A stretch of 64,000 bases of DNA from a bacterium (GTDB taxonomy: Bacteria > Margulisbacteria > WOR-1 > O2-12-FULL-45-9 > XYB2-FULL-48-7), in NCBI GenBank assembly GCA_043812655.1, contig JBDRLW010000008.1, positions 3,198 through 67,197 of the forward strand, written 5' to 3'. The position numbers and the translations under genes are program-made. How positions within the stretch are numbered: position 1 is the stretch's first letter; every line of letters starts with the position of its first letter. Below the pieces are notes generated by a model. The model was not told the origin of the DNA. It worked only from the letters and a program-made list of their open reading frames with translations, and did not search any database. Positions 4,311 through 48,451 of this stretch are shown piece after piece.

Positions 4311-5965
4311 ACCGTAAAAACATCTTAATATTAATCGCTATGGCAGTTTGTTTATACTTTTTCAAACTCGGCAGTTTCTCATTGTACGACGCGGCGGAGA
4401 CGACTTACGGCGAATTCGTTAAAAACATGCTGGGGATGAAAGATTGGCTGACATTCCATTACAACGGACAGATAATCTTTGATAAGCCCCCGCTCTATTA
4501 TTGGTTCGCGGTCATCTTTTCTAAGTTGATCGGGTTCAATGAATGGGCCATGCGCCTCCCTGCTGCTATCTCCGGGCTCCTAACCGTAATCGTCACCTAT
4601 CTCCTCGGAAAAACATTTTACAATAAACAGGTTGGATTCCTTTCCGGCATAATTGTGATGACCGCTTTCCAATTTCTCGTCCAATCGCGGATCGCGGAAT
4701 TAGATGTTGTCCTCACCCTCCTTATGACGTCGGCAATTCTCTGTTTCTACTTGGGTTACACCAGCGGGGAGAAAAAATATTATACGTTAAGCTATGTCCC
4801 TATGGCCCTAGCCGTTTTGATCAAAGGGATCCTTGGCGTTGCCCTCCCCGGCTGCGCGATCTTTCTTTTTCTGTTGATCAAAGGAGAATTAAAGATCCTA
4901 AAAGAGATGCGGATCCTCTCTGGGATCGTAATCATCACCTTGATCGGCCTCCCCTGGTACCTGGCAGAATATCTCATTCATGGTCAAGTTTTTCTTGATT
5001 TTGCCTTGGGTTTTCTTTTCCTTTCCCGGTTCCAAGGCGCGGTTTGCGGCCATACCGGCCCTTGGTATTATTATTTCCTCGCTTTAATTTTAGGTTTTGC
5101 TCCCTGGTCGCAATTCATTCCGTTCGCTTTCTGGCGAGCATATAAAGAAGTTTCTTCTCCCAACTCCCAACTCCGAACTCCAATGCTTCTTTCCCTTTGC
5201 TTTGTTATCCCCGCCTTTATCGTCTTTTCGGTCGCTAAAACCAAGATACCTAACTACATCCTCCCCCTTTATCCTTTTCTGGCCATCATGGTGGGGAAGT
5301 TGTGGGCTGAAGTTTTATCGGAGCCTGAGAATAAATTCTCGGCTCCTCAAGAAAGCAAAACAAGAATTAATTCTCGTTTTGATAAAAATGGAACCGCGAA
5401 TTTATTCGCAGGTTCCTACGGAATAACATTATCCAACATCCTTTTTGCCGTTGTCATCGCCCTAATTTTCATTGGTTGTATCATGATCGCTAATTCCAAT
5501 TATCCAACACAATATATATCCCTACTCCCTAGCCTCTACACCCTAGCGGCTATCTTAGTCCTTGGCGGCGTGATCTCAATTACCGCTTATTTTCTAAAGA
5601 AATATACTCTTTCTTTTGCCGCTATCCCAACAATGGTTTTTATCATCACTTTGATCTTGACTGTCTGGGCCCTGCCCGAAGTTGAAAACTTTAAGGGAGC
5701 TAAAGAACTGGGAAAAGAATTAAATATTGTTATTAAACCAAATCAAATTATCGCCGCTTACAATGTCGGCAATCGCCCGAGTGTTGTTCTTCACAGCCCA
5801 AAGCCAGTTAAGTTCTTGGAGACCGAAAAGGAATTATCCGTTTATATTAATCATAAAAAAGGTTACGTGTTTACATTGGTTGAAGAATATGAAAAAATGA
5901 AGGAAAGATTGCCAGCCAGGACCAAGGTTTTGGCTAAAAAAGGCGACCTTTTAATATTATATTAA
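4307..5965 (+). CDS. GT83/PMT_2 family membrane glycosyltransferase (ArnT-like), paralog 1
   Basis: Polytopic membrane protein with N-terminal YDAAETTYGEFV...DKPPLYYWF, as in ArnT / dolichyl-phosphate-mannose transferases. Carries two in-frame repeat inserts (5159-5188 and 5321-5418). Confidence 0.7.
   Translation: MNRKNILILIAMAVCLYFFKLGSFSLYDAAETTYGEFVKNMLGMKDWLTFHYNGQIIFDKPPLYYWFAVIFSKLIGFNEWAMRLPAAISGLLTVIVTYLLGKTFYNKQVGFLSGIIVMTAFQFLVQSRIAELDVVLTLLMTSAILCFYLGYTSGEKKYYTLSYVPMALAVLIKGILGVALPGCAIFLFLLIKGELKILKEMRILSGIVIITLIGLPWYLAEYLIHGQVFLDFALGFLFLSRFQGAVCGHTGPWYYYFLALILGFAPWSQFIPFAFWRAYKEVSSPNSQLRTPMLLSLCFVIPAFIVFSVAKTKIPNYILPLYPFLAIMVGKLWAEVLSEPENKFSAPQESKTRINSRFDKNGTANLFAGSYGITLSNILFAVVIALIFIGCIMIANSNYPTQYISLLPSLYTLAAILVLGGVISITAYFLKKYTLSFAAIPTMVFIITLILTVWALPEVENFKGAKELGKELNIVIKPNQIIAAYNVGNRPSVVLHSPKPVKFLETEKELSVYINHKKGYVFTLVEEYEKMKERLPARTKVLAKKGDLLILY
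5159..5188. repeat. R3 repeat (tcttctcccaactcc-naactcc-naactcc) in frame in GT83 paralog 1
   Basis: Encodes SSPNSQLRTP. Confidence 0.7.
5321..5418. repeat. R5 double-hairpin repeat in frame in GT83 paralog 1
   Basis: GGAGCCtGAGAATaaaTTCTCGGCTCC...GGAACCGCGAATttaTTCGCAGGTTCC encodes SEPENKFSAPQESKTRINSRFDKNGTANLFAGS. Confidence 0.7.
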
Positions 5966-5966
5966 T

Positions 5967-6683
5967 ATGAATAAATTAGATTTATCAGTTTCTATTCCGA
6001 CCTACAACGAAGCCAAGAACATTGAAACGATGATCATTCGTGTCCATGATGCTTTGCGCGCCCACGGGATAAATGAAGAGATCATTATTGTTGACGACAG
6101 CTCGCCCGATGGGACTGCAGCACTGGCCGAAAAAATGTCCAAAGATTATCCGGTTAGAGTTTATGTTAGGACCAAACGCGAAGGCCCCGGTCCCGCCATT
6201 ATGGATGGGATCAGACTGGCGCAAGCTCCGGTTTCCTGCACCATGGATGGAGACCTAAGCCACCCCCCCGAAGCGCTCCCTGAAATGTATAAGCTGATCA
6301 AATCAGGCCAAGCGCCCCTCGTTATCGGTAGCCGCCATGTTAAGGGAGGCGGCACTTCCAAGTGGATCTGGTATCGCAAATTTTTCTCCTGGGGAGCCCG
6401 GCAATTAGGTCGGCTGCTGACCCCGGTTCACGATTTAACCTCTGGATTTTTCATGTTCGACAAAAAGATCTTGCAAGGAGCAACGATCGATCCTATCGGT
6501 TGCAAAGTTGGACTTGAATTGATGGTCAAAGGGAAACACAAGGGCAAAGTCATCGAATATCCAATTATCTTCTCCGAACGGGCGGCCGGTGAAAGTAAAA
6601 TGGGTTGGCGTGAAACCAAACACTATCTTTACCATCTTGGCTCTCTCCTGCTTTGGAAAACGGCTAACATTTTCAAAAGATGA
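5967..6683 (+). CDS. GT2 polyprenyl-phosphate sugar transferase (ArnC/DPM1-like)
   Basis: GT-A fold, DxD (VDDSSPDG), about 238 aa. Classic partner that makes the lipid-linked donor for GT83 enzymes. Confidence 0.7.
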   Translation: MNKLDLSVSIPTYNEAKNIETMIIRVHDALRAHGINEEIIIVDDSSPDGTAALAEKMSKDYPVRVYVRTKREGPGPAIMDGIRLAQAPVSCTMDGDLSHPPEALPEMYKLIKSGQAPLVIGSRHVKGGGTSKWIWYRKFFSWGARQLGRLLTPVHDLTSGFFMFDKKILQGATIDPIGCKVGLELMVKGKHKGKVIEYPIIFSERAAGESKMGWRETKHYLYHLGSLLLWKTANIFKR

Positions 6684-8689
6684 TCGATCTTTCGGTTATT
6701 ATCGTCAATTATAATGGCGAGAAATATTTAAAGGACTGCCTCTCCTCGATCTATCAAAGTACCAAGAATATTAATTTCGAGATAATCTTTGTTGATAACC
6801 ACTCAGCCGATAATTCTGTCGACATTATTAAAACAAATTTCCCTAAAGTCATTATTATTGAAAACAAGAATAATCACGGGTTTTGCCGAGCTAATAACCA
6901 GGGTCTGAAGATATATCAAGGAAGATATGCCCTACTATTAAATAACGATACGATCGTAAAAGATGGCGCGCTAGACCAGCTGGTGCAGTTTATGGATAAC
7001 AATCCTGGCGCTGGGGCTTGCGGCCCCCTCCTCTCTAATCCCGATGGTTCACCACAACATCAAGGCGGAATATTTAATAAGAAGTTCTGGTTATCCTCTT
7101 CTCCAACTAAAGTCTCTTATGTCATCGGAGCGGCGCTAATGGTTAGGCGGGAAGTGGTTGATAAGGTCGGCGGGATGGACGAGAATTTCTTTTTTTCTAA
7201 TGATGACCTTGATTGGTGTTTGCGGATCAAAAAGGCCAGTCACGACGGGCAAGCCGGTTGGGATATTTATTTTGTTCCCCAGGCAAAAATAATGCATTAT
7301 GGCGGTTTTACGATCAATAAATTCAATCAAAAGTTATTTGTCGAAGGTTTCAGAGGCGGCCTCTATTTCTGCCGCAAACATTACGGCTTTTTAGCCTACC
7401 AATTGTATCGATCATTGCTGATCATAGGGATGATAATCGCTATTCCCCTTACTTTGATACTTTATCCATTTTTAAAACATAAAAAGAAATTAAATGCCTT
7501 TATTGAAATTTTGATGATTACCTTACAGCCCTCACCCCTGTCCCCTCTCCCAAAGGGAGAGGGGTGGAAAAACATTTTGTTAGTGAGCAACGGCCACGCG
7601 GAAGATCTAGCCGCTGCGGCAATTGGGGGAACACTGCAAACAGCAAGTCCAGATCTTTCTATTAGAGCCCTTCCTTTAGTCGGACTAGGGCAAGCCTATG
7701 ATAAAAAAGGAATAATAAATCTTGGCCTAAAGAAAATCTTACCCAGCGGTGGTTTTGCCAAAGAAGGGATATTCCATTTTTTAAATGATCTCCGCTCTGG
7801 CTTTTTTAGCCTCTTTCATCAACAGATCAAGATCCTGAGGCAAGAAGCTAAAAAAACTGATCTAGTCGTCGCTGTCGGAGACGTCTGGGTGGTGGCTTTA
7901 TGCGGCCTATTTGTTAAAAAACCTTTGATCTTCATCGATGGTCCAAAGTCAGTCAAGATCGAAGGTTATTATAAATTAGAACTTTGGCTGCTAAAGAAAT
8001 TCTGCCAAAAAGTTATCGTCCAAGACCCCGAAACAGCTGACTACTTACAGAAAAAAGGGATCCCCGCTTTTTATCTTGGTAGCTGGGTAATGGATTATGT
8101 CCCCGTCACTGGCGATAACCTTGGAATTGATCCGGGCAAAACAGTGATCGGGATTCTTCCGGGAACGCGTGAGGAAGCCTATCCTAACTTAAAATTGATC
8201 CTCGAAGTCTTTGAACTCTTGTCTCAATCTGACAAGAACCTGGTCGGAACGATTGCCTCTGTCTTAAATAAAGATAAAATTAAAATCCCTGGTTGGCAAT
8301 TAGAAGATAATAAACTAACTTCGAATTCTGGCGCTACGGCTTATCTTATCGAAGGCAAATTCGGCGATGTCTGTGTCCGCTCAAAACTTATCATCGGCTT
8401 GGCCGGGATCGCCAACGAACAAGCCGTCGCTTTTGGCAAACCAGTCGTCTGCTTCCCTGGTAGCGGAGCCCAAACGACTCTCCGCCGCTGGCAAGAAATC
8501 CACAAGATAACCAGCGATTCGATGCTGATTGTGCAAGGAAATACTGTAGAAAAAGCGGCCAAGATAATGAGATTATTGAAGGATGAAAAACGATTAGCAG
8601 TGATGGGAAAGATCGGAAAAGAGAGTAAACCAATGTGGGGCGGAGTTGAGAGGATCGCTAACCTGGTCAAAACTACTATCTCAAATTAA
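6680..8689 (+). CDS. Fused GT2 glycosyltransferase (N-terminal) plus GT19 LpxB-like domain (C-terminal); a repeat element lies at the junction
   Basis: N-terminal 250 aa are GT2-like (IIVNYNGEKYL, DNHSAD). C-terminal 380 aa are LpxB-like (LLVSNGHAEDLAAAAIGG, PGTREE). The R1 repeat at 7528-7568 encodes the linker QPSPLSPLPKGEGW. Confidence 0.55.
   Translation: MIDLSVIIVNYNGEKYLKDCLSSIYQSTKNINFEIIFVDNHSADNSVDIIKTNFPKVIIIENKNNHGFCRANNQGLKIYQGRYALLLNNDTIVKDGALDQLVQFMDNNPGAGACGPLLSNPDGSPQHQGGIFNKKFWLSSSPTKVSYVIGAALMVRREVVDKVGGMDENFFFSNDDLDWCLRIKKASHDGQAGWDIYFVPQAKIMHYGGFTINKFNQKLFVEGFRGGLYFCRKHYGFLAYQLYRSLLIIGMIIAIPLTLILYPFLKHKKKLNAFIEILMITLQPSPLSPLPKGEGWKNILLVSNGHAEDLAAAAIGGTLQTASPDLSIRALPLVGLGQAYDKKGIINLGLKKILPSGGFAKEGIFHFLNDLRSGFFSLFHQQIKILRQEAKKTDLVVAVGDVWVVALCGLFVKKPLIFIDGPKSVKIEGYYKLELWLLKKFCQKVIVQDPETADYLQKKGIPAFYLGSWVMDYVPVTGDNLGIDPGKTVIGILPGTREEAYPNLKLILEVFELLSQSDKNLVGTIASVLNKDKIKIPGWQLEDNKLTSNSGATAYLIEGKFGDVCVRSKLIIGLAGIANEQAVAFGKPVVCFPGSGAQTTLRRWQEIHKITSDSMLIVQGNTVEKAAKIMRLLKDEKRLAVMGKIGKESKPMWGGVERIANLVKTTISN
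7528..7568. repeat. R1 G-rich palindromic element copy (gccctcacccc...CCCTCTCCCaaaGGGAGAGGG) inside a CDS, in frame
   Basis: Seen directly. Shares box and hairpin motifs with eight other copies. Confidence 0.8.
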
Positions 8690-9658
8690 GCTTGCATAAA
8701 CCTCATCCACCGTTAAAAGATCCATGCAATTCGGCTTGATCTCACAGCTTTTCTGATAACAGACAGTACAGTCTATCTTTGGCATCAGTTTTTTCCCTAA
8801 GCCATATAACTCGATCTCCGCCGCCGATGTCGGGCCAAAAAAGACCACCATTTTTTTCTTTAAGGCGATCGCAAAATGCATCGCTAAACTATCGCTAGAA
8901 AGGATAGTCGAACATTGGTTGATAACTGAAGCAAAACCGCGAAGTGAATGGACTCCCGCATCAGTCATCCCGGTCGCTTTGGCTATTTCTTGGTTTCGTT
9001 CCCTTTCATCCTGCCCGCCAAGAATTATCGAATTTATCCCTTGCTCTTTTTTCAACCGGTTGACTAAATCGATCGTTTGCTTGGTCCCCCAGCTTTTCTG
9101 CGGCCAGCGCTTCCCTGCCCCAGTATTGATCCCATAAACATTTTTATCTCCAGCTAACCCTAATTTCTCAACGACTTTCTTGCCGTATTCAATTTCTTCT
9201 GCAGTTAAAGAAAAAACATAAGGAGAAACTTTTATCCCTAAAAGATCGGCCATATGTTGCTGATAGGTTTTCTGATTGATTCTTTTTAGCTTATTAGCTT
9301 TTTCTAAACCATATTGAGAGATGATCGACATATCAAACCAGCCCGAAGGAGTGTATGTAACCTTACCATCATCATAATAAGCGCCAATGATCTTTTTGGC
9401 TTTTAGGCTGGAGACAAATTGACAAACCTCCTGGCCGTCTTCGAGCCCAATAATAAGATCATAATCACCTAATTTAGATCGATCCTCCCAAGCACAAGCA
9501 TTATTCAGATGCGAATTGCCAGATAACAATTCTGTCGAGATCGTGGAGGTTAGCCAGTCTATTTGAGCCTCGGGATATTTTTCTTTTAGGCCGGATAAAA
9601 GTGAAGTGGTCCGCAAAACATCACCAATCGCCCCTAATTTAACAATAAGGATTTTCAT
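8681..9658 (-). CDS. ADP-heptose:LPS heptosyltransferase (GT9, WaaC/WaaF-like)
   Basis: MKILIVKLGAIGDVLRTT N-terminus typical of GT9 heptosyltransferases; about 325 aa. Confidence 0.7.
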   Translation of the reverse strand: MKILIVKLGAIGDVLRTTSLLSGLKEKYPEAQIDWLTSTISTELLSGNSHLNNACAWEDRSKLGDYDLIIGLEDGQEVCQFVSSLKAKKIIGAYYDDGKVTYTPSGWFDMSIISQYGLEKANKLKRINQKTYQQHMADLLGIKVSPYVFSLTAEEIEYGKKVVEKLGLAGDKNVYGINTGAGKRWPQKSWGTKQTIDLVNRLKKEQGINSIILGGQDERERNQEIAKATGMTDAGVHSLRGFASVINQCSTILSSDSLAMHFAIALKKKMVVFFGPTSAAEIELYGLGKKLMPKIDCTVCYQKSCEIKPNCMDLLTVDEVYASLI

Positions 9659-9674
9659 ATGTTATAATTTTATC

Positions 9675-11066
9675 ATGTATTTAATTATATTTTTGCTTGC
9701 GATCAACCTTTTCAAGATTAGCATCGCCCGTTATTTCCCGTTGATCGGCGACGAATCATTTTACTGGTTGTGGTCTCGTCATCTGGCTTTAAGCTATGAT
9801 TCCCATCCACCCATGATCAGTTACATCAACTTTATCTTGACTTCACTCTTTGGCCCGAGTGAGCTGGCGATCCGTTTGACCGCCATCATCATAGTATTTT
9901 CTATTTCTCTGTTTATCTACCGAACCGGCAAGGAATTGTTCGATTCCCGTGCGGCGGCGGTGGCCGTTATCGTCTTTAATCTATTACCGACCTTTTGGGC
10001 GGGCGGGATGTTCCTTGTCCCCCAGACCGTCTTTTTCTTCTTTTGGGCATTGAGCTTTTATCTTTTGGTTCTTATTATTAAGCATAAAAACGCCAGCCTC
10101 TGGTCTCTACTTGGGCTCACAGTCGGGCTTGGCCTGCTTAGCGACCATGTTATGGCGTTGTTCGTTATTGGCACACTGATCTTCTTTGGGTTTGTTAGGG
10201 AACAGCGTTTCTGGTTCACTAAAAAAGAACCCTACCTGGCTTCGCTAATAATTTTAATCGTCTATTCTCCGGTTATCATTTGGAATTTCCAGAATAACTT
10301 TGTCCCTTTTCATTTCTGGGGCGGCAGTGTTGCGCCCAAGGTTACCGAGCACCTTTTTAACTTTTTTGGCCTGCAGATGCTGTTATACACTCCACCGATC
10401 TTGGTGATGACCATTTATCAGCTTTTTCGGCTCCGGCCCGGGTTGCCGGCCCGTGACAGCCAAAATTTTCTTCTTGCGATCTTTTCGTCTGTTGTTTTTC
10501 TCCCTTTTCTTATGATCAGCCCGATCGTCAATGTCGGCGGCCATTGGCCTGCCGCTTCATATTTCCCCGCCATTCTGGGCTCGGGGCAGGTAAAAAAAAT
10601 AATACTCGGTTTGACCATCTTCTTTGCTCTGCTGGTCAATATCCTGGGCTTTACTTATTTTCTTTTTCTTTATCCTACCCCGCCGGAATTAAAAGGAAAA
10701 GAATTCACTATTAACCGTTCACTACCAGAGTTCTTAAAGTCAGCTACCCCAAAAAAAGGAAGCACCTTCTATTTTGCCAACAACTTGGGCTTGCTTGGCT
10801 TGGTCTCGTTTCACGGAAAGACCAACGCATACATGGCTTCGGGACGAATGTGGCTAGTTGACCAATGGGAGACGCCCAACATCAAAAAGGGGGATAATGT
10901 GCTCTATTTTGTACTTGATGAAACAACCCTTTACACTAAGTTAAAACCGCTTTTCCGCAAGGTCTGGATCGAACCCCAACCAAGGATTTTCGCTAAAGAC
11001 GCCGATATTCCCACCAAAACCCAGATCTATCATTGTATTGGCTACAAAGGAGGTCTAATCCCTTGA
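9675..11066 (+). CDS. GT83/PMT_2 family membrane glycosyltransferase (ArnT-like), paralog 2
   Basis: ARYFPLIGDESFYWLW...HPPM motif, polytopic. Start moved to the ATG at 9675 to avoid overlap with the convergent GT9 gene. Confidence 0.6.
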   Translation: MYLIIFLLAINLFKISIARYFPLIGDESFYWLWSRHLALSYDSHPPMISYINFILTSLFGPSELAIRLTAIIIVFSISLFIYRTGKELFDSRAAAVAVIVFNLLPTFWAGGMFLVPQTVFFFFWALSFYLLVLIIKHKNASLWSLLGLTVGLGLLSDHVMALFVIGTLIFFGFVREQRFWFTKKEPYLASLIILIVYSPVIIWNFQNNFVPFHFWGGSVAPKVTEHLFNFFGLQMLLYTPPILVMTIYQLFRLRPGLPARDSQNFLLAIFSSVVFLPFLMISPIVNVGGHWPAASYFPAILGSGQVKKIILGLTIFFALLVNILGFTYFLFLYPTPPELKGKEFTINRSLPEFLKSATPKKGSTFYFANNLGLLGLVSFHGKTNAYMASGRMWLVDQWETPNIKKGDNVLYFVLDETTLYTKLKPLFRKVWIEPQPRIFAKDADIPTKTQIYHCIGYKGGLIP

Positions 11067-12044
11067 TCAGAGCACTTGGAATCTTTTTAAGGCTCGTTCT
11101 ATACCGCTGCGGAAATCAATAGTATATTTAAACCCCAGTTGTTTCAGTTTGGCCGGATCACCAGCTCGGGCAAAAACTCCCTCCGGCTTATCCGATGTCC
11201 CACGAACCTCCGGGGTAAAACCGCAGAGATCAGCGACAATTTTGGCAAAATCAATAAAACTCGTGTAAATCCCGGTCGCTAAATTGACGGCGCCGGCATC
11301 ATCTATTTTATCCATTGTCCTTAATATCCCTTCAACGCAATCTTCAATATGGATAAAATCGCGCCTTTGCCTTCCCGTCCCCCACACCGTAATAACCGGG
11401 GCGCCGCGATTGGCCAGGACCCGTTTGCAAATCGCCGGGAATGGGTAAGTATCATCTTGATCCTCCCCATATCCTGAAAAAGGACGATAAACAACAGACT
11501 TTAACCCATGTTTTTCATAAGCTAGCTTCGCCAGATATTCACAAGTCAATTTTGCCCAACCATAAGACATATCGGGCATGCCGATATCAAGGTCAAAGGC
11601 GATCATCTCTTCCTTTAACAGTTTATGATCTTTTTCTCTTTGGTGTTTGATCGGGTAAGCGGCGCTCGAACTGAAACAAAGGCTCTTTTTCGGCTTAGTC
11701 TTTACCGCCCATTGCCAGTATTCGGCATCGATCGACAGGTCATCGGCCACCGCCAGCGGATTATTCTCGATCATCAGCCGCCCCCCCACCATCGCCGCCA
11801 GGTGGAAACAATAGTCAAAATCGGTATCATCTACCCGGTTAAAATAATCCCGGCAATCTTCGTGGTAAAAATGGAAATTCTTGAAGTCTAGGGGGGAATA
11901 TAACGGCCATTTTTTCGGCAAAAGTCCACCAGTCAGCGGAGCAACTTTATCGACACAATGGACTTCATCGCCAAGCTCCAAAAGGCGCTTAACTACATTC
12001 CGGCCGACAAAACCGGCACCGCCGGTGACAAGGATTTTACGCAT
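11067..12044 (-). CDS. NAD-dependent epimerase/dehydratase (extended SDR; nucleotide-sugar modifying)
   Basis: N-terminal Rossmann GGAGFVGRNV, YxxxK region, about 325 aa. Confidence 0.75.
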   Translation of the reverse strand: MRKILVTGGAGFVGRNVVKRLLELGDEVHCVDKVAPLTGGLLPKKWPLYSPLDFKNFHFYHEDCRDYFNRVDDTDFDYCFHLAAMVGGRLMIENNPLAVADDLSIDAEYWQWAVKTKPKKSLCFSSSAAYPIKHQREKDHKLLKEEMIAFDLDIGMPDMSYGWAKLTCEYLAKLAYEKHGLKSVVYRPFSGYGEDQDDTYPFPAICKRVLANRGAPVITVWGTGRQRRDFIHIEDCVEGILRTMDKIDDAGAVNLATGIYTSFIDFAKIVADLCGFTPEVRGTSDKPEGVFARAGDPAKLKQLGFKYTIDFRSGIERALKRFQVL

Positions 12045-12954
12045 GGAAATGCTTCCGGTAAAGGGTAAAAGCTTCTTTTGCAGCGGCAGGGAGGTAATTC
12101 ATGATGGCTTCAGGATCACCGGGAAGCTTGGTTACTATCTCTAAGTTGTTTTCATAGCCAAGATATTCCTTTTTCATATCGACCACTAGATCATGTTCAT
12201 TCCTTTGCTGGTAAACAGAAGCCCGGTTAAACACAACTTTCGCGCCTCTCGCCTGTACATAATAAGCGGCCCAGATATCATCCATCCTGCCGATATGAGG
12301 AAATAAAAAATAATCTTTCAACAGTTCCCCTTTTAGGATGGTGTTTTGCGAGTTAAAAGGCGAAAGCTTATTGGCCGCTAGCGGAAAAGCCGCCGGCGCG
12401 AATTTACATTCCGGCTTATAGATCATCCGGCAAACCGCGTCAATATCAGGATCTCCATCCCAAAAATCGGCCTGCACATCAAAGGCCATTTTCTTTTTTG
12501 ACTTTAAACTATAGTCTCTTTTAGGTACTAATTGTAGCGGATAACCGCGATGCCATAAGCGGTTTTCATTGGTAGCACCGATCGAATCAAAAGCCGGTAA
12601 TTTTGTCTCATAATAATTCACTTCAACTTCTTCTCCAACAATCAGGTTTTTTCCCCAATCAGGATACGGGATGTTGTCATCATCGATCACCGCGACCAGG
12701 TCAGCCTGCAGGTCATAGGCCCATAACAGCCCAAAATTCCGCCGTTGGATACATTTCCAGCCAATCGCGTCAGACAAAGGCTTGTCATATTTTTCTTGTT
12801 CCTCGGGAGAGACATAGATCCCCCGTTTTAATTTATAATCTTTTTGGGTTTTTAGGTCGCCAATAACTACGAGCGTCCAATCAGTCATGGCATCAAATTT
12901 TTCTATCGCTTCGGTCGGGGGATTAATCGTTGTTGTGACAATGACTTTTTTCAT
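12037..12954 (-). CDS. Hypothetical protein, possibly a GT-A fold glycosyltransferase (DDD motif; STELLO/GT75-like?)
   Basis: VIDDDNIPYPDW DxD-like motif. Co-operonic with the GT2 and epimerase genes. No firm family match from sequence alone. Confidence 0.35.
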   Translation of the reverse strand: MKKVIVTTTINPPTEAIEKFDAMTDWTLVVIGDLKTQKDYKLKRGIYVSPEEQEKYDKPLSDAIGWKCIQRRNFGLLWAYDLQADLVAVIDDDNIPYPDWGKNLIVGEEVEVNYYETKLPAFDSIGATNENRLWHRGYPLQLVPKRDYSLKSKKKMAFDVQADFWDGDPDIDAVCRMIYKPECKFAPAAFPLAANKLSPFNSQNTILKGELLKDYFLFPHIGRMDDIWAAYYVQARGAKVVFNRASVYQQRNEHDLVVDMKKEYLGYENNLEIVTKLPGDPEAIMNYLPAAAKEAFTLYRKHFHA

Positions 12955-13694
12955 ATTAGAATCTGCTCCTTCGGATAAAATAGGGTCTTTAATCCGATCC
13001 TAAAATACTCAAAATTTCTCCAGAAAGTATTCTGCGATCCGCCTTCACTCCGCGCTTTCCATTTAGAAGGGACTTCCTTCACCTCAACACCCAATCTAAG
13101 CGGCTTTACTATTGTCTCAAAAAGAAAAGGATGGCGCAATTCTTCCCAGCGGATAGATTTGACCAATAGCGCGGGAAAAAGCCGGTAACCGTAAGTCATA
13201 TCCGTTAACTTTGTCCGGTACAATATTGAAAAAAAACGTTGGAAGATAAAATTAAGCAGATATTTTAACAGGCTGTATGACTGGAATCCTCCCCCCTTTA
13301 TCCAGCGCGAGCCGGTTATTATTATAGTTGAATCCTTTTTTGCGGCTTCAATAAAGTTTTTCACTTCATCCGGAGCGGTTTCCATGTCGCTCGCCATCAT
13401 TATAATGTGGCTTCCAGAAGCAAACTTGAAGGCATCCCTCATAGCGCCGCCCAGGAAAGGGAGGGCCTGTTTAAGCATCTTTAACTTTTCACCATATCGA
13501 CTTTTAAGTTGTTCGCAGACTTTTAAGCTTTCCGGTGTTGTTTTATCACACACTACGACAATAAATTCCAATATATCGCTGGCACAATCAGCAGTGATGA
13601 TCTCAATGGTCTTCTCTAGCGACACGGTCTCGTTGATGACCGGCAGAATAACGGAGACCGATTTGAATGCCTGTTTATTTAATTCTTTCAACAT
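12951..13694 (-). CDS. GT2 glycosyltransferase (polyprenyl-phosphate sugar synthase-like)
   Basis: VSVILPVINE...VVVCDKTTPES GT-A fold N-terminus. Confidence 0.65.
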   Translation of the reverse strand: MLKELNKQAFKSVSVILPVINETVSLEKTIEIITADCASDILEFIVVVCDKTTPESLKVCEQLKSRYGEKLKMLKQALPFLGGAMRDAFKFASGSHIIMMASDMETAPDEVKNFIEAAKKDSTIIITGSRWIKGGGFQSYSLLKYLLNFIFQRFFSILYRTKLTDMTYGYRLFPALLVKSIRWEELRHPFLFETIVKPLRLGVEVKEVPSKWKARSEGGSQNTFWRNFEYFRIGLKTLFYPKEQILI

Positions 13695-13784
13695 TTGTTG
13701 GTTGTTTAGCCTCTATATAATAGCCAAATAAAATCATTTTTATATGATTATAACATATATAATGTTGACATTATTTAGAGGGCT

Positions 13785-15227: not shown

Positions 15228-15283
15228 TATAATTGAAGGCTAAGTCAAAATAAAGTAAGATTATATGAGGTCATTAAGTTCTC

Positions 15284-15345
15284 GAAAACCTGCGAATGAA
15301 ATTCGCGGTTCCATTAAAATAACCGAGAACTTTATTCTCCGGTTA
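15284..15345. repeat. R5 repeat, inverted orientation, intergenic
   Basis: ctgcgaatgaaattcgcggttcc...aaccgagaactttattctccggtt. Confidence 0.65.
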
Positions 15346-15350
15346 CGTAA

Positions 15351-16991: not shown

Positions 16992-16998
16992 TATAATT

Positions 16999-18543: not shown

Positions 18544-18672
18544 GCCCTCATCCGCTGGCGCTAAAGACTCCCCCTTCTCCCATAGGGAGAAGGGAACACA
18601 GCAAGACTAGACGTGCAAATTACCCTCTCCCTTTGGGAGAGGGGGAAAGGTTAACGTTGGCTGGGTGAGGGC
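18544..18672. repeat. R1 composite MITE-like element between convergent genes
   Basis: gccctcatccgctggcgc box, two CCYTCTCCC-NNN-GGGAGARGG hairpins, terminal gggtgagggc. Confidence 0.8.
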
Positions 18673-18679
18673 TAAAGGC

Positions 18680-24160: not shown

Positions 24161-24179
24161 TTTAAATTATAGCACAAAG

Positions 24180-24223
24180 CCACCCCCTCTCCCCCTGGGA
24201 GAGGGGGCCTGGGGGTGAGGGCT
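24180..24223. repeat. R1 element copy upstream of the TPP riboswitch
   Basis: ccctctccccctgggagaggggg hairpin plus a gggggtgagggc box. Confidence 0.75.
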
Positions 24224-24255
24224 GTGATTGCCTCCTTATGTTATAATAAATTGTA

Positions 24256-27960: not shown

Positions 27961-27967
27961 GATTTAG

Positions 27968-28124
27968 ACCCTCACCCGCTAATGCTTAAGACTCCCCCCT
28001 CTCCCATAGGGAGAGGGTAACTCGCTTGTTTTATGTTTTATTTTTATACCCCCTCTACCTCCCTGCCTGCCGGCAGGCAGGTGGGAGAGGGGGTGCTATT
28101 GTTTGGCGTTGACGGGGGTGAGGG
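27968..28124. mobile_element. R1 composite element containing a nested R6 palindrome
   Basis: Runs accctcaccc...cccctctcccatagggagaggg...cctgcctgccggcaggcagg...gggggtgagggc, with TIR-like ends. Confidence 0.75.
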
Positions 28125-28135
28125 CTGTGAGGTTT

Positions 28136-29537: not shown

Positions 29538-29545
<8 letters not shown>
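28136..29545 (-). CDS. gltD: Glutamate synthase (NADPH) small subunit
   Basis: N-terminal Fe-S Cys motifs and GSGPAG FAD/NAD fold. Immediately downstream of gltB. Carries an in-frame R2 repeat insert. Confidence 0.85.
28450..28474. repeat. R2 repeat in frame in gltD
   Basis: ctggaccctggatcctggaccctgg encodes FQGPGSRVQ. Confidence 0.7.
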
Positions 29546-35466: not shown

Positions 35467-35552
35467 GAGAATAAAATTCTCGGTTCCTCAAAAAATGGAA
35501 CCGCGACTTTCAGCCTTGCCTGCCGGCAGGCAGGTCGCAGGTTCATACCAAA
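35467..35552. repeat. R5 repeat with an R6 palindrome nested in its second hairpin loop
   Basis: cggaacctgagaataaaattctcggttcc...ggaaccgcga[ctttcagccttgcctgccggcaggcagg]tcgcaggttc. Confidence 0.7.
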
Positions 35553-45470: not shown

Positions 45471-45476
45471 CCTCCT

Positions 45477-46205
45477 TTATAAATTAATATCCAACTGCGT
45501 GGTTAGCGTTGGTTTCGCCCCATTGTTATATTTGCCATAAGCACAGAGAACAGAGGTATTCGCTGAAAATGCGTATGAAAAACCGGCAAACAAGGCACCA
45601 AGTGACGAGTCGCCTCCAGCATAATCAACCGAAGCCCATATTTTATCGGTCAGCATTTTATCCCAAGTTAAAATAACACCCGCTCCGTCAGAGCCTAAAG
45701 TAGTTTTATTTCCCGCAAAGTAGCCAGCCGATATTCGGCCAAAGCTAAAGGTTTTTGCCCCAACACCATAAAGAATATTTTGGTCGGTCGCCCCTTTAAG
45801 CAAACCAAAGCCATACCCACCAACCGCTAAAGCCGGGAAAATATCGCTTTCAGCAATCCCATATTTAGCATTAAAAACCAAAGAACTTCCGGCCACTCCC
45901 TGGGGCAGAAAGGCATCAGCTCCAATTTCAACTCCCGAAATTACACCATAAGTTAAACCCAGGTCGGTCGGAAATTGCTGGCCGCCAGAACCCTTATCTT
46001 CAACTGAAAAATAATCATCAATCCCCAGATGCCATGTCCCCTTCGCCTGGATATCGGTCGACGGATTCCAGATCTGGGTCGACGGCGTCGCCAGCGCAGC
46101 CCCTCCCACTAACAAACTAACCAACAAACAAATGGCTCGACAAGCTCGCCATCCCAGCCATCCCGAGCTCCGTCGAGGGACTAACAGACTTTTCATGATT
46201 TTCAT
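45477..46205 (-). CDS. Putative outer-membrane porin co-transcribed with amt-glnK
   Basis: Signal peptide then alternating amphipathic beta-strands. Start trimmed to the ATG at 46205 (AAGGAGGG SD). An R4 repeat copy is translated within the signal-peptide region. Confidence 0.4.
   Translation of the reverse strand: MKIMKSLLVPRRSSGWLGWRACRAICLLVSLLVGGAALATPSTQIWNPSTDIQAKGTWHLGIDDYFSVEDKGSGGQQFPTDLGLTYGVISGVEIGADAFLPQGVAGSSLVFNAKYGIAESDIFPALAVGGYGFGLLKGATDQNILYGVGAKTFSFGRISAGYFAGNKTTLGSDGAGVILTWDKMLTDKIWASVDYAGGDSSLGALFAGFSYAFSANTSVLCAYGKYNNGAKPTLTTQLDINL
46108..46185. repeat. R4 repeat (short form) in the porin gene signal-peptide region, translated from the opposite strand
   Basis: ctaacaaactaaccaacaaacaaATGGCTCGACAAGCTCGCCATCCCAGCCATCCCGAGCTCCGTCGAGGGActaaca. 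Same plus-strand orientation as the 17.8-kb copy, but the host gene is on the minus strand. Confidence 0.75.
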
Positions 46206-46230
46206 TGTTTCCCTCCTTGCCCAATAAAAG

Positions 46231-46247
46231 AGCAAACTTTCTGCCAG
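46231..46247 (-). promoter_or_regulatory. Sigma54 (-24/-12) promoter for porin-amt-glnK
   Basis: Minus-strand cTGGCAGaaagtTTGCTc is near-perfect consensus. It overlaps the ORF-track start of the porin, which argues for the downstream ATG. Confidence 0.65.
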
Positions 46248-46313
46248 GAGAGAAATAGGGGGTTAAACTATAATGAGAAACAATTTTGTAGCGATATTAG
46301 ATGGAGTTATACG

Positions 46314-47039
46314 TTATTGTAGGCCGAATATTTCGGGCAGGGTCCGTTTGTGTTCGCTAGCAGCTTGACGTTTTCTTATTAGTTCGATCTTATCTTTGGC
46401 AATCCCTTTGTCATTACCGGAAAGGAACTGGTCGAGTTCATCGTAAGTGATCCCCATCTCACTTTCATCTGTCTGCCCTGCCCAAAGACCGGCGCTCGGC
46501 GCTTTATCAATAATTTCTTTTGTGACGCCTAATTCTTGAGCCAAAGCCCTCACGTCTTTCTTTAAAAGATTCCCTAACGGCAAAAGGTCAACTCCCCCAT
46601 CGCCATATTTCGTAAAATAGCCCATTTCCAGTTCCGACCTGTTCCCCGTCCCGATCACTAAATAATTTAGTTGGCTGGCAAAATAATAAAGGGTCGTCAT
46701 CCGCAGTCTTGGTTTAATGTTGGCGATACTTAGGTCTTTCTGACCGCTATATGGCTTGCCTTCAAAGACACCAAACAATGAGTCAAATGAAGTAGACAGG
46801 TCAATCTCTTTGATTTTCAGATCAATTCGTTGCGCAAATTCTTTGGCATGATCAATATCGACCGCTAAACTGTGGCAAGGAAGAATTAACGCTAAAGTAT
46901 TTTGAGGAAAAACTTTTTTGCAAAGGAGCGCCACCACCGCAGAGTCAATTCCGCCGGAAAGTCCTAAAATACAACCTTTGGCTCCGGCTGCCTCAACCTT
47001 TTGTTTGATCCAATTAGAAATTTTTTCTGATCTATTCAT
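46314..47039 (-). CDS. nadE: NH3-dependent NAD+ synthetase
   Basis: GLSGGIDSAVV PP-loop, 241 aa. Confidence 0.85.
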   Translation of the reverse strand: MNRSEKISNWIKQKVEAAGAKGCILGLSGGIDSAVVALLCKKVFPQNTLALILPCHSLAVDIDHAKEFAQRIDLKIKEIDLSTSFDSLFGVFEGKPYSGQKDLSIANIKPRLRMTTLYYFASQLNYLVIGTGNRSELEMGYFTKYGDGGVDLLPLGNLLKKDVRALAQELGVTKEIIDKAPSAGLWAGQTDESEMGITYDELDQFLSGNDKGIAKDKIELIRKRQAASEHKRTLPEIFGLQ

Positions 47040-48451
47040 TGTAGTAAATTATGGATCGCCTTGGCCGCCCGTTTGCCGTCGCCCATGGCGGAGATAACGG
47101 TCGCGGCGCCGCGGACAATGTCGCCTCCGGCGTAAACCGCGGGGATCGAGGTCGCACCCTCCGGAGTAATGACCACGCCTCCCCACTTTTCGGTTTTGAG
47201 ATTTGGGGTACGCATCGGGACAAGCGGATTAGGAGAATTACCGATCGCCACGATCACTGTGCCAATTTGCAGTTTGAAGTTTGAGTTTGGAATCTCGACC
47301 GGCCTCCGTCGGCCGCTAGCATCGGGTTCGCCTAATTCCATCCGCAAACATTCCGCTTCAGCCACCCACCCATCACTATTAGGCAAATACTTGACCGGCA
47401 AAGTTAAATTCTTAAAAATTATCCCCTCTTCTTCCGCCCGTTTTACCTCTTCGATCCTGGCCGGCATCTCTGCCTGGGTCCGCCTATATATAATGTAAAC
47501 TTCTTTGGCCCCCAAGCGAAGAGATACCCTGGCCGCGTCCATCGCCACGTTGCCGCCGCCAACAACCGCGACTTTTTCACCGACTTTGACCGGCGTTAAA
47601 TATTCGGGGAACTTATAGGCCTTCATCATGTTGACCCGAAAAAGATATTCATTAGCGGAGTAAACCCCCTGGAGATTCTCGCCGGGAATATTCATGAATT
47701 TTGGCAAGCCGGCACCCGAGCCGATAAACACTGCTTGATAATTTTTTAACAATTCTTCGATCGTTAAGACATTACCGATCAGCATGTCAGTTTCAACTTT
47801 AACCCCAAGTGTTTTAACATATTCAACTTCAAGATTCACGATCTCTTTGGGCAAACGGAATTGCGGGATCCCGTATGTCAAAACGCCGCCCGTTACGTGA
47901 AGCGATTCAAAGATCGTCACTTGATACCCTAACCTAGCTAGATCGCCAGCGCACGTTAACCCCGCCGGCCCCGACCCGATTACTGCAACCCTCACCCCGT
48001 CACTCACTTCGTTCGTGCCACCCCTCTCCACTTTGTGGAGAGGGGAATGAATTCCGACGAAGTCGGAAGAAAGGGGTGAGGCCTTGTCCGCCACAAACCT
48101 CTCTAGGCTCCCGATCGCGATCGGCTCGCCCTTAACGCCCAACACACACTTTGCCTCGCATTGTTCTTCTTGGGGACAAACTCTACCGCAAACAGCGGGG
48201 AGAGCATTGGTCTCTTTAATTTTTTTCGCCGCTCCGGCAAAATCTCCTTGGGCCGCTAATTTTAGAAATCCGGGAATATCGACTTCGACTGGACAGCCGC
48301 TAACGCAAAGCGGTTTCTTGCATTGGATGCATCTTTTAGCTTCAGCGATCGCTTGTTCTACGGTAAAGCCTTGCGGCACTTCCTCAAAATCACGGATCCG
48401 CTCCGCTACCCCCCGCTCCGCCATATGTTGTCTTTTTGGTTTTTCAATCAT
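47036..48451 (-). CDS. GltD-like NADPH oxidoreductase beta subunit (NfnB/SudA-type)
   Basis: N-terminal Fe-S Cys motifs and two Rossmann GxGxxG folds. Paired with an NfnA/PyrK-like gene. Contains a 93-bp in-frame R1 insert. Confidence 0.7.
   Translation of the reverse strand: MIEKPKRQHMAERGVAERIRDFEEVPQGFTVEQAIAEAKRCIQCKKPLCVSGCPVEVDIPGFLKLAAQGDFAGAAKKIKETNALPAVCGRVCPQEEQCEAKCVLGVKGEPIAIGSLERFVADKASPLSSDFVGIHSPLHKVERGGTNEVSDGVRVAVIGSGPAGLTCAGDLARLGYQVTIFESLHVTGGVLTYGIPQFRLPKEIVNLEVEYVKTLGVKVETDMLIGNVLTIEELLKNYQAVFIGSGAGLPKFMNIPGENLQGVYSANEYLFRVNMMKAYKFPEYLTPVKVGEKVAVVGGGNVAMDAARVSLRLGAKEVYIIYRRTQAEMPARIEEVKRAEEEGIIFKNLTLPVKYLPNSDGWVAEAECLRMELGEPDASGRRRPVEIPNSNFKLQIGTVIVAIGNSPNPLVPMRTPNLKTEKWGGVVITPEGATSIPAVYAGGDIVRGAATVISAMGDGKRAAKAIHNLLQ
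47989..48081. mobile_element. R1 MITE-like element (93 bp) inserted in frame within the nfnB/gltD-like CDS
   Basis: CCTCACCCC...GGGGTGAGG terminal inverted repeats. Encodes an extra KASPLSSDFVGIHSPLHKVERGGTNEVSDGV just before the conserved VAVIGSGPAG. Confidence 0.8.

Follow-up and report, generated by a model that had tools for sequence, protein, structure and literature searches.

Two unrelated classes of short repeats in coding DNA of a Saganbacteria/WOR-1 genome, and a DUF559 nuclease unit as candidate parent of one of them

How can short repeats lie inside protein-coding genes without closing the reading frame? The question was raised by a 64,000-nucleotide stretch (hereafter the window) of a Saganbacteria/WOR-1 (Margulisiibacteriota) metagenome-assembled genome (MAG), in which an initial annotation had described at least ten in-frame insertions resembling Rickettsia palindromic elements (RPEs). 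The short repeats of this MAG belong to two unrelated classes, both reaching coding DNA: nested-palindromic, MITE-like dispersed elements (families D and E, plus family C) and period-7 tandem arrays, i.e. heptanucleotide arrays (families A, B and others). We consider it likely that the MITE-like elements of families D and E derive from a DUF559 unit and that the period-7 arrays arose separately.

Repeat classes and their host genes

All copies named by the initial annotation lay within ORFs with family support, i.e. PMT_2/ArnT-like GT83 paralogs, AmrS (TIGR04337), GltD (TIGR01317), an NfnB/GltA-type protein (TIGR01316), a radical SAM protein and a GT2-TIGR03492 fusion; identical proteins are called in the NCBI annotation of the source contig (P0001, P0121, P0241). 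The best homologs of the HisRS, NfnB, porin-like and GT2 proteins belonged to Saganbacteria, WOR-1 or Margulisbacteria. The reading frame was open across each copy and both orientations relative to the host genes occurred, as had been claimed. Judging from this frame conservation, the inserts are probably translated as part of their host proteins.

Families D and E are bounded by the ends CCTCACCCC and GGGGTGAGG and carry an invariant central hairpin (CCCCTCTCC-loop-GGAGAGGGG); they measure 40-165 nt and contain one or two variable stem-loops, perfectly paired in every case. Family C is another small element, embedded in octamer repeats, of which only two copies were seen. Their copies in the window are as follows (net gains relative to orthologs; a dot marks features without strand):

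47990-48081 (+): palindromic element of family D (92 nt), lying antisense in the NfnB-type gene (47036-48451, -), where it encodes aa 124-154 (ASPLSSDFVGIHSPLHKVERGGTNEVSDGVR) and fills the linker between the Fer4_20 and FAD domains; net +7 to +12 aa although the element spans 31 aa.
27664-27759 (+): family D element, 96 nt, intergenic, beginning right behind the stop codon of a flavin reductase-like gene (27103-27663).
7529-7568 (+): family E single unit (end CCCTCACCCC and hairpin CCTCTCCCAAAGGGAGAGG) within the GT2-TIGR03492 gene (6680-8689, +), aa 284-296, replacing the interdomain linker; net +3 aa although the element spans 13 aa.
18544-18676 (.): family E doublet, intergenic, between the convergent genes GT83 no. 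5 and AmrS; two inverted units giving one long hairpin (-84 kcal/mol).
24173-24224 (.): family E single unit (hairpin and GGGGGTGAGGGC end), intergenic.
27966-28130 (.): composite family E element bounded by GACCCTCACCC and GGGGGTGAGGGC, intergenic, downstream of gltD, with two internal hairpins, one being CCTGCCTGCCGGCAGGCAGG (28061-28087).
48464-48590 (.): family E doublet between the nfnA-like (48594-49613, -) and nfnB-like (47036-48451, -) genes, 85% identical to the reverse complement of 18544-18652.
17796-17920 (+): family C element (core flanked by ACTAACAA and AACCAACA short tandem repeats) in GT83 paralog no. 5 (16999-18537, +), aa 266-308, placed between two hydrophobic segments; net +38 aa (site 2 of this gene).
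46108-46185 (+): short-form family C element lying antisense in the porin-like gene (45477-46235, -); signal peptide 17-19 aa longer, upstream of an ALA|TPSTQ cleavage-type motif.

The family C core was identical at 38/38 positions (17863-17900 versus 46144-46181, E=6e-14), the two family D copies shared 87.5% identity over 96 nt (27664-27759 versus 47990-48081, E=2.5e-16) and the family E hairpin matched at 22/22 positions between copies. Only 2 of the 11 D/E hairpin units of the window lay within genes, most D/E copies being found where a gene ends, where two genes converge or between cistrons.

The arrays of the second class and related tandem repeats are:

5153-5181 (+): family A array of the heptamer type, built of (C/G)AACTCC units, in GT83 paralog no. 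1 (4307-5965, +), aa 283-292; net +6 aa.
17416-17444 (+): family A array in GT83 paralog no. 5, aa 140-149; net +7 to +11 aa (site 1).
25913-25946 (+): family A array running antisense to the PflX-like radical SAM gene (25616-26521, -) and covering aa 192-203; net +10 aa, with a different insert at the same position in ortholog L003.
19538-19567 (+): family B array of 4.3 CTGGACC units, placed antisense in AmrS (18680-19588, -) at aa 8-17; net +1 aa, with a decayed copy in ortholog L008.
28451-28476 (+): heptamer array of family B, placed antisense in gltD (28136-29545, -) at aa 357-365; net length unchanged (0 aa).
19247-19294 (+): 8/16-nt tandem repeat in AmrS, additional to the ten sites, aa 99-114, directly behind the CxxxCxxC motif; net +11 aa.
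19902-19936 (+): AAAAATG-type heptamer array that makes up the linker joining the catalytic domain of HisRS to its anticodon-binding domain; length equal to that of orthologs, which have other heptamer units there.

The family A pattern (TCTTCTCC[C/G]AAC..CCGAACTCC) matched at 5153, 17416 and 25913 and that of family B (CTGGACC x4) at 19538 and 28451; neither was matched in 100 dinucleotide-preserving shuffles for each family. The ten sites are real, exceed chance and lie in supported ORFs with an open frame, but not all of them are insertions: net gains over orthologs ranged from 0 to +38 aa instead of the proposed 8-35 aa, two of the ten sites gaining 0-1 residues. Alignment with orthologs gave C, D and E elements without counterpart in most of them, whereas GltD and the AmrS N-terminus aligned position for position. 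The inserts occupied interdomain linkers, loops and one signal peptide, the old linker often being replaced and not extended; the NfnB structure model (mean pLDDT 57) was too low in confidence for three-dimensional placement of its insert.

Period 7 was specifically enriched among tandem arrays, with 71 arrays versus 12, 6 and 0 at periods 6, 8 and 9, and 1 after shuffling; about 60% of the heptamer arrays lay inside long ORFs. In the HisRS linker, a period-7 signal of at least 0.6 was found in 11 of 22 orthologs versus 0.18% of random windows, a length of 36-42 nt being kept while the heptamer unit varied by species; in the HisRS of L005 and L015, small hairpins were inserted within the arrays. 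Another HisRS segment (20132-20168) that looked like a repeat copy was rejected as an insertion, as each of its residues had an aligned counterpart in orthologs. Families A and B consist of tandem repeats formed in situ, in linkers whose length is conserved, and are not mobile insertions; because these heptamer arrays in constant-length linkers add 0-1 residues (AmrS N-terminus, GltD), an RPE-like origin was rejected for them. Such arrays would arise and turn over in place within linkers, being stop-free in all six frames, and would alter sequence much more than length.

Could all inserts then be ancestral, fast-evolving low-complexity linkers, merely alike or homogenised in place? The position-for-position alignment of GltD, the AmrS N-terminus and HisRS 20132-20168, the constant HisRS linker with its species-specific units, and the several palindromic inserts that change length far less than their own size all speak for it. 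As a general explanation it is nevertheless unlikely: chance was ruled out by shuffling, the elements are missing from most orthologs, and the same element occurs in more than 10 unrelated genes. For families C, D and E it is refuted by near-identical intergenic copies and by presence or absence between otherwise identical alleles.

Length filter and allelic polymorphism of the palindromic elements

A metagenome census of family D, based on exact pattern matches to its right half and pooled over several organisms, retrieved 56 copies (50 distinct), 25/50 of them in frame inside ORFs, a 50% intragenic share that is therefore not a genome-wide rate. Eighteen copies were mid-gene, in NfnB (several), RsmH, LeuRS, PriA, LplA-like (two), MiaB-like (three), TsaD, PabB-like and HemW-like genes, with Pfam domains on both sides of the element or spanning it; the other seven lay in signal peptides or N-termini. 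End-to-end length was 2 modulo 3 (3n+2) in 18/18 mid-gene and 6/7 N-terminal copies, versus a 9/9/7 spread among intergenic ones; this rule implies a constant extra 1 or 4 nt. Selection against stop-containing or frame-breaking copies, as initially suggested, holds for length only. Stop-freeness is largely intrinsic, with about 2.5 of 6 frames open per intergenic D copy, 3.2 of 6 per intragenic copy and 6 of 6 in heptamer arrays; it is length modulo 3 that bears the actual mark of selection.

As the contig comes from a metagenome assembly and repeats are classic misassembly sites, the pattern could be an artefact of assembly chimeras, mis-called ORFs or pseudogenes. We regard this as hardly credible, given that independent assemblies from many samples have the same element in the same genes, that the host proteins keep their full length and have intact domains to either side of the element, and that the 18/18 length class cannot come from random misjoins.

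Two NfnB alleles of one population, P0006 (with the element) and P0009 (without), were identical outside the linker, their DNA differing solely within about 143 nt, a patch in which the flanks also carry substitutions. In the NfnB phylogeny, element-bearing genes were scattered among element-free ones and carried different subfamilies in both orientations, the right junction being identical; the search for a target-site duplication gave none that could be delimited. Several frames and both orientations were used by D/E-type elements. Stem-loop 3 covaried strictly, its 32 distinct versions all forming perfect 6-9-bp stems (shuffled mean, 0.6 bp); they contained no G-T pairs, which argues for a constraint at the DNA rather than the RNA level.

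We propose that copies of the palindromic elements, mostly intergenic, would survive within a gene only when their length keeps the frame, the host frame is stop-free and the site tolerates extra residues, i.e. in interdomain linkers, loops between membrane helices or the charged N-terminal part of signal peptides. The translated element would contribute 13-40 aa with a high content of Pro, Ser, Gly and Arg, often replacing the old linker, and the inserts may be neutral surface loops.

The DUF559 unit as a candidate parent

Locus L122 contains a 484-nt unit in the order end, stem-loop, hairpin, DUF559, hairpin, stem-loop, end, whose ends, once joined (91 nt), align over their full length with family D copies. 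The other Saganbacteria-type DUF559 genes in our data also adjoin hairpin/end units, including the one at the window edge:

63672-63725 (.): family E unit composed of end, stem-loop GTCCGCCTACGGCGGAC and hairpin; it is the terminal module that adjoins the DUF559 gene on its downstream side.
63753-64000 (-): DUF559 (PF04480) endonuclease gene, C-terminal 82 codons, running past the right edge of the window; it adjoins an FtsX/MacB-like permease gene, the same position as the DUF559 gene of L114.

From these sequence matches, the hairpin repeats look like reduced versions of a very small element whose only product is a DUF559 nuclease. Families D and E would be internal-deletion derivatives of this unit of about 0.5 kb, whose sole gene encodes a Vsr/EDxHD homing-endonuclease-like nuclease. 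About a dozen DUF559 loci were inspected. In Deinococcus, a 56-nt inverted repeat (98%), the only strong one in 49 kb, delimits a unit exactly between paaD and paaZ; Azospirillum has hairpin-end bracketing with the same CCCCTCACCCC + CCCCTCTCCC motif, and bracketing also occurs in Sphingomonas, Pseudanabaena and PCC 7002. Among these loci, that of E. coli had repeats on one side only and that of Synechocystis B12 was without flanking repeats. DUF559 matches PDB 3hrl and the homing endonuclease I-Bth0305I (PDB 3r3p, E=1.7e-6), and has been grouped with Vsr and I-Bth0305I (PMC3424549). The nuclease may mobilise D/E elements, a correlational link, possibly by break and repair (homing-like copying) with occasional new insertions.

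Two other accounts of the hairpins bear on this role. REP/REPIN-type hairpins could be moved by a RAYT (Y1/IS200-IS605-like) or DDE transposase elsewhere, DUF559 being an unrelated neighbour; the occurrence as single units or as inverted doublets that fold together as a long hairpin recalls REP/REPIN, and perfect DNA-level palindromes with no obvious target duplication fit single-strand HUH transposition. We find this improbable: neither Y1_Tnp nor any other transposase domain occurs among the roughly 50 genes of the window, the DUF559 ORF is enclosed in a unit with the same ends, the joined ends of this unit equal D copies, and such bracketing is found again in four other phyla against a repeat-poor background.

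The elements could also be host-selected structures (bidirectional terminators, mRNA stabilisers or protein-binding cruciforms) with accidental intragenic copies, DUF559 acting as a host repair nuclease on hairpins and not as a mobility enzyme. This is doubtful, even if window copies mostly occupy gene ends and the gaps between convergent genes or cistrons, stems are conserved via compensatory change, and Vsr, the best-known DUF559 relative, is a repair enzyme (PMC3384342). A terminator role accounts neither for mid-gene copies in essential genes nor for the length filter or the dispersal to many sites; DUF559 units sit inside operons (paaD/paaZ, pntAA/pntAB) in the manner of selfish DNA, and the stem-loops without any G-T pairs argue for a constraint on the DNA rather than the RNA.

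Comparison with known systems

RPEs are small palindromic elements, about half of whose copies lie in frame in unrelated housekeeping genes (PMC10969869). Family D is likewise about half in frame and would be translated as an extra peptide at permissive places. The RPE-like reading suits the palindromic D/E elements (unrelated housekeeping genes, both orientations, length filter, linkers and signal peptides), but not families A and B. RPE hosts are obligate intracellular parasites, whereas the present elements occur in environmental sediment and groundwater bacteria; the host lineage is unrelated, and no sequence relation to the Rickettsia repeats is expected. The elements differ further in size (72-110 nt versus about 100-150 nt for RPEs), in being read in several frames and both orientations, and in having a candidate parent with a nuclease gene; we know of no autonomous partner described for RPEs.

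The initial view that such in-frame copies are rare outside Rickettsia was overstated, since ERIC, Coxiella QMITE1 and Anabaena MITEs are also described as forming in-frame fusions (PMC10969869). These and other enterobacterial small mobile sequences are non-autonomous, have terminal inverted repeats and sometimes form in-frame ORF fusions (PMC10969869, PMC2229807, PMC5896051). The present elements likewise enter host ORFs in frame; however, their intragenic share is much higher, one linker is repeatedly taken by different subfamilies, internal stem-loops strictly covary, and the candidate parent carries a DUF559 nuclease instead of a transposase.

With REP/REPIN and their RAYT they share short hairpins, single or as inverted doublets, abundant intergenically, and a repeat-flanked putative mobility gene. 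This gene encodes a Vsr-like nuclease of the PD-(D/E)xK superfamily (DUF559), not a Y1 HUH transposase, and REPs are essentially extragenic whereas the present elements enter coding sequence.

Cyanobacterial heptanucleotide repeats (STRR) with embedded small dispersed repeats were reportedly described by Elhai et al. in Genome Res in 2008. Here too, period-7 arrays are specifically enriched and small hairpins lie inside arrays (HisRS of L005 and L015), and the host phylum is a sibling of Cyanobacteria. Heptamer repeats of Nostoc and Xanthomonas have been reported to be over-represented in non-coding DNA and under-represented in ORFs (PMC4692102), in contrast to the arrays described here.

Compared with the EDxHD/Vsr-like homing endonuclease I-Bth0305I, the DUF559 proteins are free-standing (about 105-130 aa), lie outside introns and inteins, have no counterpart of its N-terminal DNA-binding region and are bounded by inverted hairpin ends. 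They resemble it in the match to its structure, and the short patch with flanking substitutions that separates P0006 from P0009 resembles a co-conversion tract.

Repeat families of the window and their host genes

Long ORFs cover about 93-95% of the window. The closest relatives of its proteins come from MAGs labelled Saganbacteria, candidate division WOR-1 or Margulisbacteria, with identities to the best relatives of up to 70% for HisRS (protein database) and of 60-80% for the NfnB, porin-like and GT2-TIGR03492 proteins; three window ORFs have 100% identical NCBI proteins on record, all from one MAG contig (the porin-like one being ABIH50_01625). No transposase domain was recovered among the window genes by a Pfam/NCBIfam-type domain search. 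The gene content includes:

LPS-type glycosyltransferase cluster with five GT83/PMT_2 paralogs (4307-18537)
thiamine biosynthesis genes
AmrS, HisRS and a radical SAM protein
glutamate synthase large and small subunits, and two glutamine synthetases
F-type ATP synthase operon; Amt/PII
NfnAB-like pair, NadE, type ISP restriction enzyme, NrpR and GDH

The five paralogous (ArnT-like) membrane glycosyltransferases share their single cluster with GT2, GT9, lipid A acyltransferase and ABC exporter genes, and repeat inserts were found in two of the five. Two further regions deserve mention. A 192-nt stretch (61096-61287 and 61801-61992, 72% identity) is common to the adjoining genes 61098-61736 and 61803-62456, the second of which has an OMP beta-barrel domain, and points to small outer-membrane protein genes having been duplicated in tandem. 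At 52410-56069, where G+C is lower (about 0.40), a type ISP restriction-modification enzyme gene adjoins a SocA/Panacea-domain antitoxin-like gene; this region may be a defence islet.

The initial annotation had located at least ten copies of four repeat families inside genes, with the frame kept open whichever strand is translated, and had taken them all for insertions of one RPE-like kind. The repeats, here called families A to E, do sit where it placed them, and chance is excluded by shuffling or by match E-values: families A and B gave three matches each, vs none in 100 shuffles, core matches within the window reached E=6e-14 (family C) and E=2.5e-16 (family D), and the family E hairpin matched at 22/22 positions. 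Each copy inside a gene leaves the host frame open, in an ORF whose identity is backed by Pfam or NCBIfam; some copies run with their host gene and others against it. The copies proved neither all insertions nor all of one kind. Alignment with orthologs (25 related genome loci, the protein database and PDB chains) showed that some inserts lengthen their host, but net gains ranged from 0 to +38 aa.

Net length change of host proteins relative to orthologs
GT83 no. 1: +6 aa
GT83 no. 5, site 1: +7 to +11 aa
GT83 no. 5, site 2 (family C): +38 aa
PflX-like protein: +10 aa
porin-like signal peptide (family C): +17 to +19 aa
AmrS, internal 8/16-nt repeat: +11 aa
NfnB (31-aa D element): +7 to +12 aa
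GT2-TIGR03492 (13-aa E unit): +3 aa
AmrS, N-terminal heptamer array: +1 aa
GltD, heptamer array: 0 aa

According to Pfam domain boundaries and PDB-chain alignments, insert sites fall at interdomain linkers or signal peptides; an AlphaFold model of NfnB (28-sequence alignment, mean pLDDT 57) was too poor to place the insert in three dimensions. Three readings were discarded. The 'ACTAACAA' look-alike in HisRS (20132-20168) encodes residues homologous to those of orthologs and is no insertion, the CCCTCACCCC motif of the PflX-like gene (25963) encodes residues that align with orthologs and does not mark an element end, and the gene fusion in GT2-TIGR03492 cannot be ascribed to its element since about 28 element-free Saganbacteria-type orthologs keep it.

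The arrays of families A ((C/G)AACTCC) and B (CTGGACC) are short, have a period of 7 and show no stop in any of the six frames. When tandem arrays were counted over Saganbacteria and Margulisbacteria loci, period 7 was uniquely enriched, with 71 arrays vs 12, 6 and 0 for periods 6, 8 and 9, and one after shuffling; about 38 of 62 (about 60%) lie in ORFs running at least 80 codons on both sides. The linker between the catalytic and anticodon-binding domains of HisRS (window 19902-19936) is 36-42 nt long in loci L001-L024 and gives a strong period-7 signal in 11 of 22 orthologs, vs 0.18% of random windows. Its heptamer unit varies between orthologs at constant length, which points to homogenisation without length change. 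The AmrS array is found in a decayed form in one ortholog. Rather than RPE-like insertions, the arrays are best read as tandem repeats turning over in place, akin to cyanobacterial heptamer repeats. A small hairpin, CCTGCCTGCCGGCAGGCAGG, which is intergenic in the window (28061-28087 and 35514-35540), was seen inserted within the HisRS heptamer array of two related loci (L005 and L015), recalling the small dispersed repeats embedded in Nostoc heptamer arrays.

Palindromic elements in genes

The remaining families are palindromic. In a family E unit, a spacer separates an end, GCCCTCACCC, from the hairpin CCCTCTCCC-nnn-GGGAGAGGG; family D shares the ends and the central hairpin of E and has two more stem-loops. 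Their copies in the window are:

7529-7568, 24173-24224 and 63672-63725, family E single units
18544-18676, 48464-48590 and 27966-28130, family E inverted doublets, each folding into one long hairpin
27664-27759 and 47990-48081, family D elements

These nested inverted repeats fold at -48 to -87 kcal/mol, and no matching family was detected by an Rfam gathering scan of the window. Nine of the 11 D/E hairpins of the window are in intergenic DNA, i.e. roughly 5% of its length, and two are in genes.

Further D copies were sought on metagenome contigs with an exact pattern for the right half of the element. This census yielded 56 copies on 55 contigs, corresponding, once the copies of the window and of loci L081 and L082 were included, to 50 distinct ones. 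Neither their ends (CCTCACCCC/GGGGTGAGG) nor their central hairpin vary in the 50 copies, which are 72-110 nt long and, as MITEs are, small, numerous, ORF-less and bounded by terminal inverted repeats. The flanks, AA(T/A) on the left and (A/T)(T/G)(T/G) on the right, prolong the palindrome, and no direct repeat could be defined there as a target-site duplication in the 50 distinct copies. Stem-loop 3 exists in 32 sequence versions, every one forming a perfect stem of 6-9 bp (average of 0.6 bp for shuffled versions). Compensatory pairs are of many types but never G-T, and this exclusion of G-T pairs points to a constraint on DNA rather than RNA.

Half of the distinct D copies (25/50) lie inside ORFs, with hosts confirmed by Pfam, and 18 of them occupy a mid-gene position in a recognisable gene. 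Mid-gene hosts are NfnB-type genes (the window and loci L081, L082, L084, L090, L100, L117, L123 and L136), genes for RsmH, LeuRS, PriA, TsaD, PabB-like, HemW-like and two LplA/B-like proteins, and MiaB-like genes with three copies, two of them within one gene. According to Pfam, these copies stand between domains or break one domain by about 30 residues. Locus L118 has two in-frame elements in one MiaB/RimO-like gene (490-584 and 784-872), one separating the UPF0004 domain from the radical SAM domain and the other within the latter. Seven other D copies follow the start codon by a few codons and precede a hydrophobic signal-peptide or lipoprotein segment; they end in ...KKGVR, i.e. the positive charges needed by such a region. 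The family C copy of the window porin-like protein is placed in the same way. Predicted junction peptides of the inserts are, for example, ...FVADKASPLSSDFVGIHSPLHK and VERGGTNEVSDGVR.

The length of the genic copies is strongly constrained. If length is taken from CCTCACC to GGTGAGG, the 3n+2 class holds every one of the 18 mid-gene copies and six of the seven N-terminal ones, whereas the 25 remaining copies (intergenic or other) are split 9/9/7 among the three length classes. Hence only frame-neutral copies persist in genes, and this in turn argues that the inserts are translated; the rule also means that the inserted DNA must carry a constant 1 or 4 additional bases. The initial annotation had proposed selection against both frame-breaking and stop-containing copies. 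Exclusion of frame-breaking copies is borne out by this length class, but freedom from stops is mostly intrinsic, as 2.5 of six frames are open per intergenic D copy and 3.2 per intragenic copy. One sense frame of D is closed by the TGA of AATGAAT and of the end motif.

Some linkers have received elements repeatedly. That of NfnB contains no repeat in many orthologs or in the structures from Thermotoga and Pyrococcus. In other orthologs it is occupied by D elements belonging to at least four subfamilies; most of these are sense-oriented, those of the window and L100 being antisense. They share one right-hand junction, where GGGGTGAGG immediately precedes the (V/I)AV(V/I)GSG motif. A single ancient insertion could be considered for this site, but it fits poorly with the different subfamilies, the two orientations and a distance tree in which element-bearing genes are scattered amid element-free ones. 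The LplA-like, MiaB-like and GT2-TIGR03492 linkers also contain different units in different orthologs.

A natural allele pair was found within one sediment project. The NfnB proteins P0006 (L117, with a D element) and P0009 (L138/L139, without) are identical save for the linker. Over about 1.4 kb, their DNA differs at a single patch of about 143 nt, where an ordinary linker stands against the D element. The patch comprises the element, about 35 nt upstream (five substitutions) and about 15 nt downstream (5-6 substitutions). The pair shows that, in nature, a linker that has the element and one that lacks it can replace each other; its patch is the trace that would be expected of recombination with a diverged allele and, for this single pair, would also fit co-conversion of the homing type.

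The D/E element system may also be the source of family C, as a module that became detached. The reverse complement of the family C core (GTCCCTCGACGGAGCTCGGGA...), compared using the copies at 17796-17920 and 46108-46185, is similar to stem-loop 1 in one subfamily of D (GTCCCTCGACTCGC...CTCGGGAC). No copy of families A, B or C was present in any related locus searched.

DUF559 genes and a candidate parent element

Autonomous elements were sought by pairing CCTCACCC and GGGTGAGG motifs 0.4-3.5 kb apart, which returned clutter; the candidate parent was found instead starting from a DUF559 gene. Four such genes are present in the roughly 0.8 Mb of Saganbacteria-type DNA gathered, and all four abut hairpin/end units. 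In the window:

63753-64000, minus strand, 3' part of a DUF559 gene at the window edge, followed by the end/hairpin unit 63672-63725

The 484-nt unit of locus L122 (1045-1528) is organised as end, stem-loop, hairpin, DUF559 ORF, hairpin, stem-loop and end. Its joined ends make 91 nt that align with D copies over their whole length, and the unit is a longer coding relative with the same ends, of the kind expected for MITEs. At L114 (1987-3480), two FtsX-like permease genes flank a DUF559 gene that has at least nine end/hairpin units around it and an ORF reading through two of these units (tail ...PSPSGRGRLG...PGEG...); gene order at the right edge of the window is as at this locus.

DUF559 (PF04480) is the family of E. 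coli YcjD. The window fragment and the genes of L114, L122 and L133 score 74-113 bits against PF04480 (cut-off 20.6); in PDB, the proteins match 3hrl and, in its catalytic domain, the I-Bth0305I homing endonuclease (3r3p, E=1.7e-6). In the literature, DUF559 is grouped with Vsr and I-Bth0305I (PMC3424549, PMC3384342), and our search found no paper tying it to repeats.

Bracketing by repeats extends to other phyla. A DUF559 gene of Deinococcus psychrotolerans stands exactly between paaD and paaZ, enclosed by a 56-nt, 98% inverted repeat that is the sole strong one within 49 kb. An Azospirillum gene (motif CCCCTCACCCCAACCCCTCTCCC...GGGGAGAGGGG) and a Sphingomonas gene wedged between pntAA and pntAB are bracketed likewise, as are those of Deinococcus NW-56, Pseudanabaena, PCC 7002 and Neisseria, some being on cyanobacterial plasmids. 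Flanking repeats were seen on one side only in E. coli, and none were found at the Synechocystis B12 locus. The units measure about 0.45-0.56 kb (e.g. L122 1045-1528 and L150 23329-23823) and often lie inside operons.

From these arrangements, we infer that the DUF559 nuclease may move D/E elements. A broader reading, to which we give slightly less than an even chance, is that DUF559 proteins are the nucleases of unrecognised cross-phylum selfish units of about 0.45-0.6 kb, with hairpin modules, ORF-less derivatives and spread by homing. Inverted modules of the type 'end plus C-tract/G-tract hairpin' would delimit each unit, and the widespread CCCTCTCC...GGAGAGGG hairpin repeats would represent its derivatives without the ORF. 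In Saganbacteria, such derivatives would have turned into frame-neutral passengers of essential genes, spreading from allele to allele by break-and-repair copying (homing), again and again into the same linkers.

Comparison with known repeat systems

The proposed RPE-like nature is functionally borne out for families C, D and E, which behave like RPEs and other intragenic MITEs (PMC10969869). Family D, like RPEs, is a dispersed palindromic repeat with a large share of copies in unrelated genes and the frame kept. We do not claim membership of Rickettsia RPE-1 to RPE-10, the host being a Saganbacteria-type MAG. Special here are the high intragenic share, the length class, the re-used linkers, the signal-peptide insertion and the DUF559-bearing candidate parent, which set the palindromic elements apart from RPEs and other intragenic MITEs. 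In REP/REPIN-RAYT systems, repeats flank a Y1 (IS200/IS605-like) transposase gene, whereas the flanked gene here is DUF559 and no Y1 domain was found in any window gene. A homing endonuclease gene would cut the empty allele site-specifically and co-convert its flanks, a behaviour with which the one natural allele pair, through its patch of about 143 nt, is compatible. The heptamer arrays share enriched 7-nt tandem units with cyanobacterial STRR; those repeats are reported as mainly non-coding (PMC4692102), whereas the present arrays are mostly within ORFs. Such period-7 arrays in coding linkers raise the question of the process behind 7-nt periodicity, here and among the cyanobacterial siblings of this lineage.

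The repeats inflate and diversify predicted metagenome proteins (strings like 'PSPS.MERG...GVR'), which bears on annotation and homology searches, and they reveal positions tolerating 10-40 extra residues, i.e. linkers of NfnB, LeuRS, PriA and MiaB-like proteins and the N-terminal part of signal peptides. The large DUF559 family is given a testable function, and very common hairpin repeats a candidate parent. Finally, mobile palindromes of the Rickettsia type, probably translated within essential enzymes, are extended to free-living, uncultured relatives of Cyanobacteria, with clean population-genetic signatures in the form of a length filter and a natural presence/absence allele pair.
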